Source of the DNA: a virus
Lineage: Duplodnaviria; Heunggongvirae; Uroviricota; Caudoviricetes
Strand: one strand, 5' to 3'
Virus record (IMG/VR): IMGVR_UViG_2711768040_000012
Length of the DNA: 10,122 nucleotides
Part shown: in pieces, positions 1-10,122 of the stretch
How positions within the stretch are numbered: position 1 is the first letter of the stretch
Layout of the letters: every line of letters begins with the position of its first letter
Notes under the pieces: generated by a model
Seen by the model: only the letters and a program-made list of their open reading frames with translations
What the model was told of the DNA's origin: nothing
Database searches by the model: none
Translations under genes and position numbers: made by a program

Positions 1-234
1 ATGAAATCAAAAGACACCCTAAAGTGGTTCCCTGCGCAGCTTCCTGAAGTAAGAATTATCCTAGGGGATGCTGTAGTGGAAGTAGCAAAACAGGGAAGAC
101 CTATCAATACCAGAACATTGCTTGATTACATTGAAGGAAACATAAAGAAAAAATCATGGCTGGATAACAAAGAATTATTACAAACAGCGATATCAGTTCT
201 TAAAGACAACCAAAATTTAAATGGTAAAATGTAA
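1..234 (+). CDS. ynaE: YnaE/YdfK-family small prophage protein (cold-shock-inducible family), 77 aa
   Basis: Complete ORF, ATG at 1-3 and TAA at 232-234. Translation MKSKDTLKWFPAQLPEVRIILGDAVVEVAKQGRPINTRTLLDYIEGNIKKKSWLDNKELLQTAISVLKDNQNLNGKM is recognised from memory as the 77-aa YnaE (Rac) / YdfK (Qin) protein that sits upstream of pin in E. coli K-12 prophages. The ynaE versus ydfK assignment is uncertain. Confidence 0.8.
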   Translation: MKSKDTLKWFPAQLPEVRIILGDAVVEVAKQGRPINTRTLLDYIEGNIKKKSWLDNKELLQTAISVLKDNQNLNGKM

Positions 235-550
235 TATAATAAACTTACTTTTTTATCATTTTTCCACTTTAACAACATTTTGCTCCACTTTTCCACGACC
301 AAACAACTTGAAATCTGGTTAAAATAACACGCAACACTATTCTTCTTCCTTGAGTCCGCCCGGAACTCGAAAAACAAACCGAGTTAAAGCCATTTTTCAC
401 AAAATCGATTTTGGGTCTCACCAAAATTACGGGGTTGCATACGCATTCGTTTATTTTCGAACGTGTACATACAAATATGCACAAAAATAATCATAATTAT
501 TTTCTGAGATGCATTATGATATGAACACCAATTTCGTATAGAGTCTCACT
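235..550 (+). promoter_or_regulatory. AT-rich intergenic region upstream of pin, presumed to hold the pin promoter/operator
   Basis: 316-bp non-coding, AT-rich spacer between two same-strand genes. Contains direct repeats of TTTCCAC/TCCACTTT (261-296) and an imperfect palindrome TGTACATA-caaa-TATGCACA (464-483) about 70 bp upstream of the pin ATG. No clean sigma70 -35/-10 pair could be assigned by eye. Confidence 0.3.
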
Positions 551-1141
551 ATGTCTCAAATTTTTGCTTACTGTCGGATATCAACGCTGGATCAGACCAC
601 CGAAAATCAACGCCGGGAAATCGAAAGTGCAGGTTTTAAAATCAAACCTCAGCAAATAATCGAAGAACACATTAGCGGCTCAGCAGCAACCAGTGAGCGT
701 CCTGGTTTTAACCGGTTGCTTGCTCGCCTGAAATGTGGTGATCAATTGATTGTGACAAAACTGGATCGCCTTGGTTGTAATGCAATGGATATCAGGAAAA
801 CAGTGGAACAACTGACCGAAACAGGTATCAGAGTGCATTGCTTAGCATTGGGGGGCATTGACCTGACCAGTCCAACAGGAAAAATGATGATGCAAGTAAT
901 TTCAGCAGTCGCTGAATTTGAACGAGACCTTTTACTTGAACGCACTCATTCCGGGATAGTAAGAGCCCGCGGCGCAGGGAAACGTTTTGGTCGACCACCT
1001 GTGTTAAATGAAGAACAGAAACAGGCGGTATTCGAACGAATTAAGTCAGGTGTAAGTATAAGTGCCATTGCCCGGGAATTCAAAACCTCGCGGCAAACCA
1101 TTTTAAGAGCCAAAGCAAAACTTCAGACACCTGACATATAA
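551..1141 (+). CDS. pinR: Serine recombinase, Pin/Gin/Hin/Cin-family DNA invertase, 196 aa
   Basis: Complete ORF, ATG 551 to TAA 1139-1141. N-terminal resolvase/invertase catalytic motif ([12 protein letters not shown], presumptive catalytic Ser11) and C-terminal helix-turn-helix ([21 protein letters not shown]). Recognised as essentially the Rac/Qin prophage invertase PinR/PinQ of E. coli K-12. Confidence 0.95.
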
Positions 1142-1238
1142 AAAATAATCTCGGTGTGAGATGCTTTACGTCTTCCAAGCCCCCTTCCTTGCCGTAAATG
1201 GAAAGATACATCTAATTATAGAATTTATATGTTTTACC

Positions 1239-1814
1239 CTACGGCAGTGCTGGCCATTCAATATCCTGTGCAGTTGACGTATCAACACGGTTCAGCAATA
1301 CCCGATACTTTTTCCATGCTTCCAGCAACGAGATTTCTTCCTCCGTTGCAATTTCCAGATCTGCAGCATCCTGAAGCGGCGCAATATGCTCGCTGGCTAC
1401 CTGCATCAGGCTGTTTTTTGTTTCTTCCGCCTCCCGGATCCGGAACAGTTTTTCTGCTTCCGTATCCTTCACCCAGGCTGTGCCGTTCCACTTCTGATAT
1501 TCCCCTCCCGGCGATAACCAGGTAACATTTTCCGGTAACGGACCGAGTTCAGAAATAAATAACGCGTCGCCGGAAGCCACGTCATAGACGGTTTTTCCCC
1601 GATGATCTTCAACGAGATGCCACGATGCCTCATCACTGTTGAAAACAGCCACGAAGCCAGCAGGAATATCTGGTGGTGCAATATCGGTACTGTTTGCTGG
1701 CAGACCTGTATGAGGCGGAATATATGCGTCACCTTCACCAATAAATTCATTAGTTCCGGCCAGCAGATTATAAATTTTTATGGTCCGTGGTTGTTCACTC
1801 ATTCTGAATGCCAT
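1239..1814 (-). CDS. tfa: Tail fibre assembly protein Tfa, 191 aa
   Basis: Complete minus-strand ORF, ATG at 1812-1814 and TAG at 1239-1241. Translation [24 protein letters not shown]...DIEWPALP is recognised as the TfaR/TfaQ/lambda Tfa family. Its ATG overlaps the stf stop by one base (TAATG), suggesting translational coupling. Confidence 0.92.
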
Positions 1815-4800
1815 TATGCAAGCCTCACAATATAGTTAAATGCGATGTTTTTGACGGTGTTTTCCGCGTTACCAGCAGCGTTAACGGTGATGGTGTGTCC
1901 ATGTGAACCAATCGCAACGGAGTGCGTATGAGCACCAATACCGACAGTATGCGCGTGTGCACCTGCAGATGCTGCTGTGCCGGACAGTGAATGGCTATGA
2001 TTACCATCTGTACTGGTATTCGCTAACCACCCCGTAGACATACCTACTGAGCCTTGTACACCCCAGGTATTTTGACCTGAGCTTGTATAACCATATTGAT
2101 AAGTATCTTTAAAAACACTGGGGTTAAATCGACGGCCATCTCTATGGCTGTGATTACCAGCTGCATTCGTGCTGCCACTTAAACTATGGGTATGCGCACC
2201 AGTGTTATTCGTGGATTTAGTGCCGTAATCAAACGACGATGTGGTTTTCGTCCCCAAATCCGTACTGGATACGCTGGCGCTGTGGGTGTGTGATTTAATG
2301 CCGTCCTGTTCCTGAGACAATACGGCCCGACCACTGGCGGGCTTGCCCTTAATCGTCCAGCCACGCATATCAGGGATCACGCCTGACGGATAAGCGGCTG
2401 CAAGTTTCGGGTATGCAGATTTGTCAAAAGTCTGCCCCTGCATCAGGGCATAACCAGACGGAACGGTATCTGATGGCCACGGGATTGGTGCGCCGACTGG
2501 GTAGCTTTCTGGTGGAAGATTTTTCGAGGTATAAACTTCTGCCCAGTCTTCCTCAAAACCATAGCCATCTCTTGAGGAACGGTAGAACAGACCTCCATTT
2601 CTGTAATGTGCCTTCATCTGCAAGGTCCGGCAACTTCCGACTCCGGTATAGAAGTTAACCAGAATATAGGTGTCGCCAGAGCGGGTGACATTGTAAGCGC
2701 CTGATTCGGCATTCCAGGGAACGCCACCATCCGCATCGGCATATGTATCCGTTGCCCTTCTGGCAAAAGCAGCCACATGCGCGGCGGTTAAAGTAATATC
2801 TTTGGAACCATCAAACTCAACACCAGAAACCCGTCTTGGCGTTTGCAGCTTTGTTGCTGTTAATGCATTACCGTTCAGACTTGCGGACAGTTTGGTTCCA
2901 ATAACCAGTTCGCCGGTTGCGTTATCAATAGCAAACGGTCTTAATGTATTCCAGCCACCATAAACATCACCTTGATTGGTAAGCAGCAGGTAAGTTTTAG
3001 CGCCATCATTACGCCATAATGCCCCATACTCCCCACCTATCATTCGAATCTGATTACCACCACACGCTACAATTTCGTCTGTGGCAAAAAGTTTTTTGCA
3101 CGACAAGTTATCGTTAACGATTAACGAATGAGACTCATAAAAACCACGCCCACTCTTAAAATCAAGGATAACGTCCGCCGCGATACATTCAGTCGCCGGA
3201 TTTGTTGCCCCAAACTTATAGGTCGTATCATTAACAACGAGATCAGCACCAGGTGCGGATATTGACAGGCCATCTTCGATAAACGCAAAAACAGGGAAAG
3301 CAGCGCCATCAACATAGAACACAGAGCGCAAATCATCGCCCTTATTACTCATCATTATTGAGTGGATGGCTCGTTCATTGTTTTGATATTGCCAGAACAT
3401 TCCATAAGCATAACGCCCCCTGTCAGTCCAGCCACCAGGCATAACAAATCCGTTAAACTCGCAGTTATTCATCGGATCGCCTGCGGTTCGCGTTGCCGTG
3501 GTGATAATGACCCTTGATGCCAGTTCGCTTACTGAGCCAGCAGAACGCATAACAACAACAGGGTAATATTTTCCAGATGTTGCACCTGCAGGAGCGTTAA
3601 CCCGCACATAACGCATACCACGCTTATCAGCAAAGTCTGTTTTACTGACCGCGTTAATGTTGTTCAGGAAGCGTCCCTTATCGGGTATATCAGCGCCGTT
3701 CTGGTCTTTCTGCAGACGTTTCTCTGCATTGTCATAGGCTGATTTTACTGCCTTTGGCGTTGCCGCCAGCGTTTCAGACGTCCTCAAGCGCCACGGCGGA
3801 TGCAATATCCTCTGCCCGTTTTGCCGCTGTCTCGGCGCGCGTTGCCGCGGATTCCGCCGTACTTTTGCTCTGTGCTGCCGCCGTCGCACTGCCAGCTGCC
3901 TCTGTCGCCTTCGTGGATGCTGTCGTGGCGCTGACCTTCGCTGCGGACGCTTGTCTGGTCGCCTCATCTTTTGAAGCAGACGCCGATGATGCCGATGACG
4001 CCGCCGAACTGGCGGACGATGCGGCAGCCGTTTTTGAGGATTCTGCGCTGGTTTCCGACGCTTTCGCGTTCGTCTCGGATGTCTTCGCTGCGGAAGCAGA
4101 CCTCGCTGCTGCGCTGGCCTGTTCAGTGGCTTCGCCAGCCTTCGTTGTGGCTGTTGAAGCAGACGATGCGGCACTTTCTGCCGATTTTCCGGCGGCGGTG
4201 GCACTGGCTGAGGCCTGCCCGGCACTTGTTGACGCGGCACTGGCAGACGACGCAGCCGCTGTTTTTGAGCCTGCCGCAGCCGAGGCGCTCTGTCCCGCTG
4301 CCGTTTCAGAAGACCTGGCGTTTGTCTCAGACGTCTTTGCCGCCTTCGCGGAATTGCCTGCCGCCGTTGCCGAGGAAGCGGCACTACTGGCGCTTGATGA
4401 TGCGTTCGTTTCTGATGATTTCGCTGCCTCTTTTGAGGCCGCCGCATCCCGGGCTGAGGTGGCTGCTTCTGACGCCTTCGTGGTCGCGGCGGATGCAGAA
4501 GTGGCTGCTGATTGTTGTGACGCTGCCGCATTCGTTTCTGACGTTTTCGCCGCAGCGGCACTGGTAGCTGCCGCGCTTTTTGAGGACTCTGCAGCAGCAG
4601 CACTTTTCGATGCTTCACTGGCCTTTGTTGATGCCGTTCCTGCGCTGGAAGATGCTGACTGAGCCGACGACGCGGCCTGTCCGGCTGACGTGCTGGCTGC
4701 GCGTGCTGAGCCTGCAGCATCAGTCGCATGGGTTGCCGCCTCACGGGCTGATGTGCCGGCATCGCCGGCTGACTTCTTCGCGGCTGCCGTGTTCTGTGCC

Positions 4801-5159
4801 ACCGCGGACGCGTTACGCGCCACCTCTTCCACCATCAGTTCAAAACGGCGCAGTGCCTCAGGACGGGCATCATCCTCCGTCATGGCACCGAGAAAATCAT
4901 TCAGCGTACCGGGTCGGGAATCTTCATACACGGTGATGGTCCCGGCATGTGACGGCGGGAATCCCTCCACCAACAGAATAACGCTGTACTGCCCGTACTC
5001 AACGTCCATGCTGTAACGCCCGGCTTCATCCGGATTTTCTGAGGCCAGCGTGTTCACCACCACCGTGGTGCTGTTACGTTTTGCTTTCAGCTGGATTGTG
5101 CAGTTCTGTACCGGTTTTCCTGTGCCGTCTTTCAGTACACCTGAAATCTTTACTGCCAT
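1814..5159 (-). pseudogene. stf: Side tail fibre protein Stf, disrupted by a frameshift near 3774-3782 (N-terminal fragment 3774-5159; C-terminal homologous part about 1814-3781 in another frame)
   Basis: N-terminal frame starts at ATG 5157-5159 (MAVKISGVLKDGTGKPVQNCTIQLKA..., lambda Stf-like; the track's 5165 start is an upstream GTG) and stops at TGA 3774-3776 after ...[17 protein letters not shown] second frame carries the rest of the fibre from [23 protein letters not shown] to the C-terminal ...[18 protein letters not shown], stop TAA 1814-1816. The track's 982-aa ORF (1814-4762) is this C-terminal part fused to an Arg/Pro/Gln-rich alternative-frame read of the Ala-rich repeats. Confidence 0.8.
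3777..4830 (-). repeat. Ala/Ser/Thr-rich low-complexity tandem-repeat stalk region inside stf
   Basis: About 350 codons dominated by A, S, T, K, E with recurring units such as AAKTSETNA(R/A/K)SSET and SAASSA. The matching DNA shows degenerate direct repeats of about 27 nt, e.g. gcgttcgtctcggatgtcttcgc near 4067, gcgtttgtctcagacgtctttgc near 4318, gcattcgtttctgacgttttcgc near 4528 (plus strand). The GC-rich repeat keeps several frames open, which produces the artefactual overlapping ORFs. Confidence 0.7.
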
Positions 5160-5167
5160 ATTCACCC

Positions 5168-5200
5168 CACAAAAAAGCCCGCCTGAACCGGCGGGCTGTC
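5168..5200 (-). terminator. Rho-independent terminator downstream of lom (minus strand), immediately upstream of the stf start
   Basis: Minus-strand RNA forms an 8-bp GC-rich stem (AGCCCGCC / GGCGGGCU, loop GGUUCA) at 5176-5197, followed by UUUUUU (5171-5176), then GUGGGGUGAAU and the stf ATG. Confidence 0.6.
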
Positions 5201-5223
5201 ATAACACTGTGTTACCTGGCTAA

Positions 5224-5823
5224 TCAGAATTTATAACCGACACCCACGATGAAACCGTCAGTGCGCCAGTCACCACTGCCGGAGCCTTCATAAGCAATAT
5301 CAATGGCCACGGATTCGGTCGGGTTAAACTGCACGCCAGCCCCCCACGCCAGAGACGTGTTGCTGTGGCGACCGTCATCACTTCCGGTCAGCACATCGTG
5401 CTTTTTCCCCTTGTTGTCAGTTACGCGAAGATAATCCCCGGAGAAAGTCGACACACGGCTGTAAGCTACACCCGCCATCGCATACGCGCTGAACCATTCA
5501 TTCACGCGCACAGACGGCCCCGCCATTACGCTGAACCAGCGGTTACGAACGGAATCTTCATGCCAGCGGGTATCGCTGTAACGGGTCAGCTGGCGATTCT
5601 TGTCTCCTGCATAGCTGAATGACGTCACCAGCCCCAGTGTGTCCGTAAACTCATAACGGTATTTCACGTTAATCCCGTTCAGATCATCACTGCCGGGGAC
5701 GTTCGTCGAGGCATGAAGATACCCCGCGCTCAGCGTGGACTGATGTTCAGACGCCCATGCAGGCGCACCGGATACGGCCAGACAAATGGCTGCGGACAAA
5801 ATTGCTGCACAAACTTTACGCAT
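5224..5823 (-). CDS. lom: Lom outer-membrane protein (Ail/OmpX/PagC/Lom family), 199 aa
   Basis: Complete ORF, ATG 5821-5823 and TGA 5224-5226. N-terminal signal peptide MRKVCAAILSAAICLAVSGAPAWA and a C-terminal ...GFIVGVGYKF beta-barrel terminal motif ending in Phe. Near-identical to lambda Lom as recalled. Upstream GAGAGG Shine-Dalgarno. Confidence 0.95.
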   Translation of the reverse strand: MRKVCAAILSAAICLAVSGAPAWASEHQSTLSAGYLHASTNVPGSDDLNGINVKYRYEFTDTLGLVTSFSYAGDKNRQLTRYSDTRWHEDSVRNRWFSVMAGPSVRVNEWFSAYAMAGVAYSRVSTFSGDYLRVTDNKGKKHDVLTGSDDGRHSNTSLAWGAGVQFNPTESVAIDIAYEGSGSGDWRTDGFIVGVGYKF

Positions 5824-5844
5824 AATTACCTCTCGCTTTTCTGC

Positions 5845-5875
5845 AATAAAAAAGGCGTCATTCCTGACGCTCTTT
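5845..5875 (-). terminator. Stem-loop with flanking U-runs between J and lom, likely intrinsic terminator for J transcription (possibly bidirectional)
   Basis: Stem GCGTCA (5855-5860), loop TTCC, stem TGACGC (5865-5870). On the minus strand it is followed by UUUUUUAUU (complement of 5846-5854); on the plus strand it is followed by TCTTTATT. Confidence 0.55.
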
Positions 5876-5893
5876 ATTGGGGTTATAAATATT

Positions 5894-8800
5894 TCAACGA
5901 ATACTGATGCCGGAAGCGGCTTTTTTGGTCACAATCACCGTACAGTCGGTGATATTGCCTGCCCCCTGATTGCCTTTCTGGAAAATCTTAAACTCCAGAG
6001 TGACGCTTCCCCTGCCACTCGGCATATCAATAACTGCACTGTAACTACCGGGAATGGCCCCTTTAGTTTCTCTGGATGCGATTAATACGCCGTTTTTGCG
6101 AACTTCAAAACCATAACCCGTGTATCGCGTGCCTCCTGGGTTATTTCCGCTCCCCGGATCGTCATACGCTATACCGTTAAAAATAATGGGCGGAATAATA
6201 ATCTGGCGGTCAAAGTTATGATCATCGCTGATGGTGACTGTAACCGTACCGTTTGGTGTTTCCGTGTTACCCCACGTACCGACTTTTTTCGGGAAGGCTT
6301 TTGATACAGCTTTAACGAAATCTCCTCTGACCTGGGTCGCCTCCAGCATGCCCTTAATCGTACAGTTCTGGTTAATCGTGACATTGTTGAGCGTTCCTGA
6401 GTTCGCATTCACACTGCCACTGATATCCGCATTTTTCGCCGTCAGTCTCCCGTCTGATGTCAGGGAAAATGCCGGAGGATTACCGCCGCTGGTAATGGTG
6501 GGGGCCGTCAGGCGTTTCAGGAACACTTCATTCATGAATATCTGATCGCCCTGACCAACAAACATCGGCTTTGTGTTGCCATTCGCAGGATTAATCATCG
6601 CAATCCTGTCTGCTGCCAGCAGCACCTGACTCTGCATGCCGTCAGGGGTGTTCTCAATACCGGCACCGATACCCGCAATATAAAGGCGTCCGTCCTGCAT
6701 CTGCTGCAGCTTCACTGCCCACATGCTGTTCAGGTTATTATTTGTATCAACCTGAACCTTCTGTATCTGCTGGATCGCTGCACTCTGGTCTTCCAGTTTC
6801 TTATTGACGGTCTGTGTTATTTCATTGCTGACATCCGTTATGGACGTCCTGATTTCAGTCAGGTCAGGCGCAAGCTGACCGTTATCAATCTGCGTCCACA
6901 GCTCCTGAGCCAGATGGGTTTTCCCTATCTCGCCTTTGAAAAAATCCAGATAGCCTGATGCATCATCACTCGGCTGACCGACAGCCTCCACGAATGCCGA
7001 TTTGCCAACGGTGTTCACACTGCGAACGTAAAAATAATAATCATGGCCCGGTTTGATATTGATACTGGCGGCTATCCAGTACAGTGCCGTACCAAGATAA
7101 CGCGCGCTGGTTTCAACCTGCCTGATATCCGCAATCCGTTTTTCCGAGAACCAGAACTCAAACTGTACCGTCGGGTCATAAACCGCAAGATGCGGCGTGG
7201 CGGTTATCTGAAAATAGCCCGGCGTCAGCTCAATCCGCGACGGCGCTGCCGGTGCGGCAATCCGGAACGATACCGACGCCGGATCGCCCTGCTGCCCCCA
7301 CGCATTTACTGCCCGGACTGTCAGCCTGTAGTTCCCCAGAGCCAGTTGTGTGAAGCGGTAAGTGGTTTCCGTCGTCCGGGCCGTGCTGACCAGCCGCTCA
7401 CGGCCGTCATCCGCTGCCACGGTCAGGCGAAGCAGGAAGCTCACGCCCTTCACCACCTTCGGCGTGTCCCAGCGCGCCAGCACCTGGTATTCCCCGCTGT
7501 CTGCGGTGACTTCGGCGGTCAGGTGCTGCACCGCTGGCGGCGTGACACCATTCACCGTGCCGCTCTGGTCGCCGTCAAAGTGCGCCCCGTTATCCACGAT
7601 GGCTTCTTTTTCCGGTACATGCTGCACGGCGGTGATGGCATACGTGCCGTCGTCGTTATCACGGATACTCACGCAGCGGAACAGGCGCTGGCGCAGCGTC
7701 GGCAGCTTCAGCCCCCACACGCTGTATTCAGCAACGCCGTCAGGAACACGGCTCACTTTCACCTTCACGCCGTCGGTGACGGACTGAACCTCCACGCTGA
7801 CCGGATTGCCACTTCCGTCAACCAGGCTTATCAGCGTGGTACCGGAGGATGGCAGAGTGATTTCACGGTCGAGCGTCAGCGTCCGGGTCTGGCTGTTTAC
7901 CGCCAGCACGCGCCCGCCGGTGCTGATACCGGCATAGTCATCATCGCAGATTTCAATGACATCGCCCGGTACATGGCGAAGCCCTTCAGCACCCACGCTG
8001 AAATCCACGGTCTGCGTCTCCAGCAGTTCCGTTTTAATCAGCCACAGCCCGGCGCGGTGTGCCTGCCCCCGGCTGGTACAGCCAAAGGCATCCATCTTCG
8101 TGACATTACGACCGTAACGGGCAATGGCCTGCGTATCTTCAACAAGCTCTGTCGCCGTCTCCCAGCCGTTGTTCGGGTCAATCCAGTTCACCTCAACGGC
8201 ATTATGGCGGTCCTTCAGGGCGCTGAAACTGTAGCGGAACGGCGCGCCATCATCCGGCATCACCACATTACTGCGGTTATAGGTCCACACCTTATCCGAC
8301 GGTCGGTCCTGCACGAACGTCAGCGTCTGCCCGTTCCATACCGGCATACAGCGCATCGCAGAGCAGAAATCACTGAGCACATCCCACGCCTTGCGCTGTG
8401 TGGTCAGGTACGCATTACAGGTGATGCGCGGCTCCGTGCCGCCAAAACCGTCCGGCACCGACTGATCGCAATGCTGGCCGATGACATACAGCGCCCATTT
8501 GTCCACATCCGCCGCACCAAGACGTTTCCCCATGCCGTAGCGCGGATGGGTCAGCATATCCCACAGACACCAGGCCATGTTGTTGCTGTATGCTGGCTTA
8601 AACGTTCCGTCCCAGATACCGCTGTATTGCCGCGTCTGCGGGTTATAGTTCGACGGCACCTGCAGAATACGCCCGCGCAGATGATAATTACGGCTCACCT
8701 GCTGGCTGCCGAACTGCTCCGAGTCCACCTGCACGCCGACCAGTGCCGTGTTCGGGTAGCCCTGTTTCACATCGATGATTTCGGTGTATGACGACCAGAG

Positions 8801-9391
8801 CGTTTTGTTCTGCAGCTGGTCTGTGGTGCTGTCCGGCGTCATCCTGCGCATCCGGATATTAAACGGGCGCGGCGGCAGGTTATCCACCACAACCGAGGCC
8901 AGATACTGTGAGGTGGTTTTGCCCTTAATGGTGATGTCTTTTTCCGTCACCCAGCCACCGTTACGTTGTATCTGAACCAGCAGGCGGACTTCCGATGGAT
9001 TCCTGTCCCCCTTTGAGGTGGTTTCCACCAGTGCCTGCACGCCGAAAGTAAAACGCAGACGGTCAATGTTTGCCGACGTGATGGTCCGGGTGATCGGCGT
9101 GTCGTATTTCACTTCCGTACCCAGCACCGTCTCGGAGCCAGAGGATTCAAATCCCTCCGGCGGTGTCTGCTCCTGCTCACCGGCCCGGAACACCACCGTT
9201 ACACCGGAGATATTGGTATTCCCCTCACTGTCCAGCACTGGCGTACTGTTCAGCAGCACGCTTTTTAATCCATCCACCGGACCTTCAATCGGCCCTTCGC
9301 TGATGGCATCGATCACACTCAGCAACTGCGTGGACTTCAGGTTGTCCTTCGCTTCGCGCGGAGTATGCCCCTTACTGCTGCCTTTACCCAT
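5894..9391 (-). CDS. J: Tail tip / host-specificity protein J (central tail fibre), 1165 aa
   Basis: Complete ORF, ATG 9389-9391 (GAGG Shine-Dalgarno 5 nt upstream) and TGA 5894-5896. First roughly 820 residues ([45 protein letters not shown]...) are near-identical to lambda gpJ as recalled. The C-terminal roughly 340 residues are diverged and about 33 aa longer than lambda's 1132-aa protein. Confidence 0.95.
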
Positions 9392-9412
9392 TCCTCACGC
9401 TCCATAAACGAC

Positions 9413-9433
9413 AAAACCGCCCGGAGGCGGTTT
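9413..9433 (-). other. Perfect 8-bp GC-rich stem-loop in the I-J intergenic spacer
   Basis: AAACCGCC (9414-9421), loop CGGA, GGCGGTTT (9426-9433), perfectly self-complementary. Lies in the 59-nt gap between the I stop and the J start. The flanking U content on the minus-strand transcript is only moderate, so terminator function is uncertain. Confidence 0.35.
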
Positions 9434-9450
9434 CACATAAACGTTTTTCA

Positions 9451-10122
9451 TCAGCGACCAATCACCACAACCTGACCACCGTCCCCTTCGTCTGCCGTGC
9501 TGATCTCCTGAGAAACCACACGTGATCCCACGCGCATTTCACCGTACAGAACGGGCAGAACATTGCCCTGGGCAACCATGTTATCCAGTGAGGAGAAATA
9601 GGTGTTTTGTTTGCCGTTATCCGTTGTCTGTGTACGGGGAGTTCTGGCTTTCGGTGCCAGCATCTGGGCCACACCACCGAGCACCATACTGGCACCGAGA
9701 GAAAACAGGATGCCGGTCATACCACCGGCCCCAATGGCTTCCCCCCACGCTGCAAGGGTGGCTCCGGCAGTAAAGAATGATCCGGCAATGGCGGCTGCTC
9801 CCAGGACAATCTGGAATACACCACCAGACTTGGCCCCGGCGACTCTGGGAACAATATGAATCACAGCGCCATCAGGCAGAGTCTCATGTAACTGCGCCGT
9901 TAACCCGGACGTGCTGACGTCCCGCCCGGCAATCCGTACCTGATACCAGCCGTCGCTCAGTTTCTGACGAAACGCCGGGAGCTGTGTGGCCAGTGCGCGG
10001 ATGGCTTCAGCCCCCGTTTTCACACGAAGGTCGATGCGGCGGCCAAATCGTTGCAAATCCCCGTAAAGGCAGATGCGCGCCATGCCCGGTGACGCCAGAG
10101 GGAGTGTGTGCGTCGCTGCCAT
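9451..10122 (-). CDS. I: Tail tip assembly protein I, 223 aa
   Basis: Minus-strand ORF with ATG at 10120-10122 (window edge) and TGA at 9451-9453. Translation MAATHTLPLASPGMARICLYGDLQRFGRRIDLRVKTGAEAIRALATQLPAFRQKLSDGWYQVRIAGRD...GQVVVIGR matches lambda gpI as recalled, including the Gly/Ala-rich hydrophobic central segment. Confidence 0.95.
   Translation of the reverse strand: MAATHTLPLASPGMARICLYGDLQRFGRRIDLRVKTGAEAIRALATQLPAFRQKLSDGWYQVRIAGRDVSTSGLTAQLHETLPDGAVIHIVPRVAGAKSGGVFQIVLGAAAIAGSFFTAGATLAAWGEAIGAGGMTGILFSLGASMVLGGVAQMLAPKARTPRTQTTDNGKQNTYFSSLDNMVAQGNVLPVLYGEMRVGSRVVSQEISTADEGDGGQVVVIGR

Follow-up and report, generated by a model that had tools for sequence, protein, structure and literature searches.

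The side tail fibre gene (stf) of the lambdoid prophage analysed here lacks exactly 53 nt at the end of its proximal shaft region, and the remaining sequence is divided between two reading frames. We regard this lesion as a real, private and recent 53-bp inactivating deletion in an stfR-type stf, which would leave the phage without side fibres, and we place the probability of this reading at about 0.7. Whether it proves to be a pseudogene of the ordinary kind, confined to one strain, or an error in the local assembly, the lesion is no new kind of feature.

Genomic context of the stf gene

The window, by which we mean the whole stretch of 10,122 nucleotides that was analysed, is an exact reverse-complement substring of the contig CXXD01000015.1 (96,365 bp) in the draft assembly GCA_001269005.1, and the exact J product is recorded on this single contig. 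Past the window, the contig continues into ynaM, uspF, ompN and ydbK, and its opposite end breaks within the prophage K gene. Judged from the sequence of these neighbours, the prophage is located at the Rac site of E. coli. The window is the tail-fibre end (I-J-lom-stf-tfa-pin-ynaE) of a lambdoid Rac-type prophage, and the J-lom-stf-tfa order expected of a lambda/Rac-type Stf is present according to the ORFs and Pfam matches, with the same order annotated in relatives. The features are as follows, with the basis for each in brackets.

10122-9451, minus strand: tail gene I, end part (ORF list; Pfam on public gene calls)
5894-9391, minus strand: J, central tail fibre or host specificity protein, 1165 aa, intact (ORF list; Pfam)
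5224-5823, minus strand: lom (Ail/Lom outer-membrane protein), intact (ORF list; Pfam; comparison with a relative)
3774-5159, minus strand: stf N-terminal fragment, 461 codons plus a premature TGA (translation; Pfam; starts of homologues)
3781/3782 (or 3780/3781, one A being shared), minus strand: stf deletion junction, 53 nt absent (alignments; breakpoint analysis)
1814-3781, minus strand: stf C-terminal remnant in the +1 frame, 655 codons plus a stop, ending ...NYIVRLA (translation; Pfam)
1239-1814, minus strand: tfa, tail fibre assembly chaperone, 191 aa, intact (ORF list; Caudo_TAP by Pfam on the public call)
551-1141, plus strand: pin-type serine invertase, intact, convergent with tfa (ORF list; comparison with a relative)
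1-234, plus strand: YnaE/YdfK-type protein, 77 aa (ORF list; Pfam on public gene calls)

The start of tfa and the stop of stf overlap by one base. When the window was compared with E. coli Z0117EC0040, the closest complete genome, we observed a sharp mosaic boundary within J. Positions 1-7500 differ from this genome by 2 substitutions and the 53-nt gap, whereas positions 7514-10054, covering the N-terminal half of J and gene I, differ by 87 substitutions and one 1-nt intergenic indel (9438). The closest full-length matches (99.0-99.1%) are Qin-site prophages of other strains, flanked by ydfJ/ydfI. Since the window itself is from the Rac site, these near-identical Qin-site matches indicate that the J-lom-stf-tfa-pin modules are common to prophages at both sites.

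The stf gene is divided between two reading frames

On the minus strand, stf begins with the ATG at 5159-5157, from which the frame opens with MAVKISGVLKDG and runs for 461 aa to ...AVALEDV and a TGA at 3776-3774. The continuation lies in the +1 frame of the same strand, where it begins with the ACG at 3781-3779 and stops at 1816-1814, and no single continuous ORF in the window connects the N-terminal domain with the receptor-binding tip. Because the TGA at 3776-3774 is followed by a continuation in the +1 frame, the window stf is, as far as its sequence can tell, a disrupted member of the Stf family, i.e., a pseudogene predicted to be no functional fibre gene, and, if the lesion is real, it should be marked as a pseudogene in annotation. 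The first-pass annotation had placed a frameshift exactly at the GIVQLSSATNS motif, with an N-terminal frame of 461 aa starting at 5159 and stopping at 3774-3776 and a continuation in another frame from about 3781. The frames and the alignment described below agree with this description, and its coordinates, peptides and length were all correct.

The 461-aa fragment has the same start as the RefSeq proteins of intact homologues. Its residues 1-134 match the entire phage_tail_N profile (PF08400; profile 1-134/134, E = 2.2e-72; Pfam), and the fragment holds the tail-attachment domain together with the Ala/Ser-rich proximal shaft. The C-terminal remnant, which matches the Z0117EC0040 Stf residue for residue over its C-terminal part, carries part of PF03406 (Phage_fiber_2), PF21446 (Gp34_trimer-like), PF07484 (Collar) and a His-rich distal tip according to Pfam. 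Only profile positions 17-41 of 42 of Phage_fiber_2 are left in the remnant, the first 16 being gone, and the window stf accordingly has no complete Phage_fiber_2 motif at the proximal shaft end. The remnant contains neither a start used by homologues nor an attachment domain.

An exact look-up of the 461-aa fragment found no record, and the 691-aa C-terminal public call was found in GCA_001269005.1 only. The public calls skip the 461-aa fragment, and an antisense ORF of 245 aa is called instead (window ~3925-4662, plus strand). This ORF has no Pfam match and lies in an Ala/Ser-rich stretch of 60-63% GC with several open frames; the call resembles lambda orf206b in kind.

Intact homologues carry 53 additional nucleotides

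We aligned the window at 3700-3850 with the corresponding regions of E. coli A1, phage Chlobot, K-12 MG1655 stfR and E. coli Z0117EC0040. The nucleotide alignment is interrupted once only, by a gap of exactly 53 nt (17 codons + 2 nt) in the window stf relative to the intact homologues, and the flanks of the gap are 100% identical in all four. The absent 53 nt are ATGCAAGTACGACGAAAAAGGGGATAGTACAGCTCAGCAGTGCGACCAACAGT. Their deletion takes out ASTTKKGIVQLSSATNS, with which the Phage_fiber_2 repeat (PF03406) begins, and shifts the frame by +1. Lambda stf also has the homologous segment, with few substitutions. Hereafter, GAGG/ACGTCTG denotes the deleted junction, the slash marking the breakpoint, and GGGGATAGTACAGCTCAGCAGTGCGACC is the sequence marking the version with the 53 nt. 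The loss had previously been estimated at about 17 codons plus a remainder, or 50-55 nt, and the alignment with lambda stf and K-12 stfR, proposed at the same time, has now defined it as 53 nt. The motif given there for homologues was also right, as read in K-12 StfR, Z0117EC0040, lambda and P2 H.

A 601-nt query over the site matched ~1,250 E. coli records across most of its length, and the best 40 of these matches were all in two pieces, with a subject span of at least 654 nt. The lambdoid phages Chlobot, Kati, mEp332 and 2H10 gave two-piece matches as well, and all phage records spanning the site keep the 53 nt. If intact homologues also lacked the motif and read straight through, the split would have to be interpreted differently; none of the intact homologues compared is without the motif, and every one is a single ORF, including that of the close relative Z0117EC0040.

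When the 53 nt are restored, an ORF of 3399 nt encoding 1132 aa emerges, with its sole stop at the end. The restored Stf differs from the Stf of Z0117EC0040 in one residue (G132S), corresponding to one nucleotide over the rest of the gene, and tfa (tfaQ in that genome), lom and pin have 0 amino-acid differences. The orthologues thus have extra sequence, and restoring it rebuilds the ORF, as is expected of a pseudogene. Because the rest of the gene is near-identical to that of the closest relative and 53 nt suffice to restore the full ORF, the lesion is specific and not a product of chance.

The deleted junction is found in a single assembly

We searched for the junction with a 40-mer centred on it, for which seeding was possible only by a junction-spanning 28-nt word. 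This 40-mer was absent from 5,426 complete E. coli genomes, ~1,250 of them with this allele across the site. Likewise, the exact 30-mer of the junction was absent from GTDB species representatives, IMG/VR and JGI metagenome contigs. Double annotations at this place do occur elsewhere: both NZ_CP103329.1 and phage ev099 have two proteins annotated under the stretch equivalent to window 3500-4100, labelled 'hypothetical protein' twice in the former and 'tail protein' and 'hypothetical protein' in the latter. These double annotations suggest independent stf disruptions in other strains or phages.

Breakpoints and rival explanations

Around the gap, the intact sequence reads GAGG/ATGC on the left and CAGT/ACGT on the right, with a single shared A. 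The sole notable direct repeat nearby is AGTACG, whose two copies are 45 nt apart and offset from the breakpoints by +5 and -3 nt. Slipped-strand deletion leaves one copy of a several-nucleotide direct repeat present at both breakpoints, and no such repeat was found. The first-pass annotation had read an ACG microhomology at the junction as a sign of slippage, which does not hold, since the intact sequence has no ACG at the left breakpoint and only the A is shared. Replication slippage between short direct repeats could invoke the 6-nt AGTACG repeat within or next to the deleted segment of intact genes; however, the endpoints miss this repeat, and slippage there would remove 45 nt in frame as against the 53 observed, which makes it a very improbable origin of the lesion. 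Because the breakpoints share 1 nt only, they point instead to illegitimate end-joining or breakage, and the deletion, if real, would be an illegitimate event nearly independent of microhomology. We also considered and rejected a hairpin-mediated deletion, as the DNA fold of the intact region gives small hairpins, none of which unites the breakpoints; the only inverted repeat there is 5 nt long and lies ~15 nt outside the breakpoints. A functional arrangement, in which the two frames are joined by a programmed +1 frameshift at GUC-UGA-A or the fibre segments are switched by an invertase, is more improbable still. It is true that the downstream frame is +1, that skipping one base at the stop would fuse the frames, that GAGG stands 2 nt upstream of GUC in what may be a superficial likeness to the prfB site, and that the pin invertase gene is adjacent. 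Yet the junction occurs in one assembly only, whereas every homologue is a single ORF. By the decoding rules, tRNA-Val is unable to re-pair on UCU after a +1 shift, and this failure of codon-anticodon re-pairing, together with the uniqueness of the junction, rules out programmed frameshifting. As for the invertase, the crossover core AAACCNNGGTTT was found nowhere in the window with up to one mismatch, which rejects invertase-mediated deletion or switching, and no alternative fibre or tfa segment lies beside pin, there being ~100 nt between tfa and pin. The window thus has no invertase-switched segment of the Mu G, P1 C or e14 P type.

The main competitor, unlikely but to be taken seriously, is an artefact of assembly or gap closure, in which the strain has an undamaged stf and the 53 nt dropped out during the joining of contig ends or the closure of a scaffold gap near sequence shared with other prophage fibre genes. 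Only one draft assembly has the junction, and its contig breaks off in the same prophage, inside the tail genes, as is typical of repeat-limited short-read assembly, and no second independent assembly or sister strain with the junction was found in the databases searched. The motif region and the next ~100 nt are conserved at the nucleotide level among many stf and P2-type H genes, and the motif region is present several times per genome in many E. coli strains (at as many as 6-7 places in one genome). Multi-copy regions of this kind are where short-read assemblies break and are then patched. Moreover, the lesion is the sole defect of an otherwise pristine gene and is in no other record, and deletions with almost no microhomology are less common in E. 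coli than repeat-mediated spontaneous ones. On the other hand, the 14-kb locus has no N, no other frameshift and no other coding indel, the only other indel relative to the reference being 1 nt in an intergenic, divergent stretch. The first-pass annotation had allowed for an assembly error in a GC-rich repeat context; the junction, however, lies outside all in-window repeats of at least 15 nt, which rejects a local repeat as the cause of a misassembly, and the Ala/Ser-rich repeats begin ~50 nt upstream of it. Without a repeat, and with breakpoints sharing 1 nt, collapse of the assembly graph is ruled out, and an artefact would have to stem from an uncommon error in gap closing. As a rule, a de Bruijn-graph assembly yields a novel, repeat-free junction only when reads span it; since no repeat could collapse into it, this junction would have required spanning reads in any graph-based assembly. 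We therefore favour a real deletion, which would be evolutionarily very recent because the gene is otherwise undamaged.

Two further observations concern the neighbours of stf. With no switchable segment in the window, the pin invertase is left without a substrate segment, as in K-12 Rac. A search for Rfam RNA elements found none at the junction, and the only match in the window is IS009 (RF02111), a full-length match (219.9 bits, model 1-199/199) at window 1273-1471 on the minus strand, within the coding strand of tfa. Because this full-length match is wholly within the tfa coding region, the IS009 'sRNA' family seems to have been modelled on the sequence of a tail-fibre-assembly gene.

Predicted consequences of the deletion

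With a real deletion of the ASTTKKGIVQLSSATNS codons and the resulting +1 shift, translation from the normal start would end two codons past the junction. The 461-aa product would retain the tail-binding domain and the proximal Ala/Ser-rich shaft and would be devoid of the hinge, the distal shaft, the Collar and the receptor-binding tip, while the 655-codon remainder would possess neither an attachment domain nor its own start. Expression of tfa, normally coupled to the end of stf, would probably be reduced: polarity is likely because tfa now follows ~1.96 kb of untranslated RNA. An induced phage would be expected to lack side fibres and to adsorb more slowly, relying on J alone as laboratory lambda does.

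We assign only a marginal probability to the deletion being real and the gene nonetheless not dead, or its loss having been selected, as in laboratory lambda. Low-level +1 slippage at GAGG-AC-GUC-UGA-A or a restart at an in-frame TTG just upstream could in principle produce a fibre, and such a fibre would be 18 residues short within the conserved motif. Adsorbing quickly by means of side fibres can carry a cost, hence selection for their loss is possible. The deletion is of little importance beyond this strain. If real, it is a further case in which a lambdoid phage has independently lost its side tail fibres, in parallel with lambda PaPa, and any phage induced from the prophage would adsorb through J only. 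If it is an artefact, it provides a small example of a local draft-assembly error at a conserved multi-copy fibre motif.

Comparison with known side tail fibre genes

The window stf is the same gene as stfR of K-12 Rac (1120 aa) and as the stf of 1132 aa found in Rac/Qin-type prophages of other E. coli, for example WP_072018383.1 in Z0117EC0040. In K-12 stfR and the stf of Z0117EC0040, the flanks of the lesion are nucleotide-identical to the window, and the N-terminal domain, the Ala/Ser-rich shaft and the C-terminal tip are shared. The lom-stf-tfa-pin-ynaE order is common to the window and its Rac/Qin-type relatives, and on the chromosome the window is found where Rac is, next to uspF-ompN-ydbK. 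Unlike K-12 Rac, in which lomR is interrupted by IS5 and J is missing, the window has intact J and lom; in contrast to K-12 stfR and its relatives, it is without the 53 nt, and its stf ORF is split. A more distant likeness exists to P2 H and other PF03406 fibres, which share the conserved block with stf at both the protein and the nucleotide level. The N-terminal part of P2 H differs from that of stf, P2 has a contractile tail, and the relationship is confined to the shared module.

The closest parallel to the lesion itself is stf of lambda PaPa (orf-401/orf-314), a homologous gene that has likewise fallen into two parts, an N-terminal one of ~400-460 aa and a C-terminal one that is out of frame. 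The two lesions are both located at the proximal shaft end or hinge, and the same phenotype is expected for both, namely that side fibres are absent and J alone mediates adsorption. The PaPa lesion is reportedly a single-base change, as Hendrix and Duda are said to have found in 1992. The window allele is not the PaPa allele, as the first-pass annotation had recognised in calling it a different lesion: lambda orf-401 keeps the whole motif and loses the frame from residue 396 (hinge), whereas the window deletion corresponds to lambda residues 356-372 at the proximal shaft end, ~25-40 codons upstream of the PaPa lesion. In the Ur-lambda fibre, the proximal coiled coil comprises residues 102-393 and the hinge residues 394-422 (PMC12617516). 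A frameshift has deprived laboratory lambda of its side fibres, which bind OmpC and make adsorption faster (PMC12617516). Set beside these systems, the lesion in the window stf represents a private allele that is new but belongs to a well-known kind, the pseudogenisation of prophage fibre genes.
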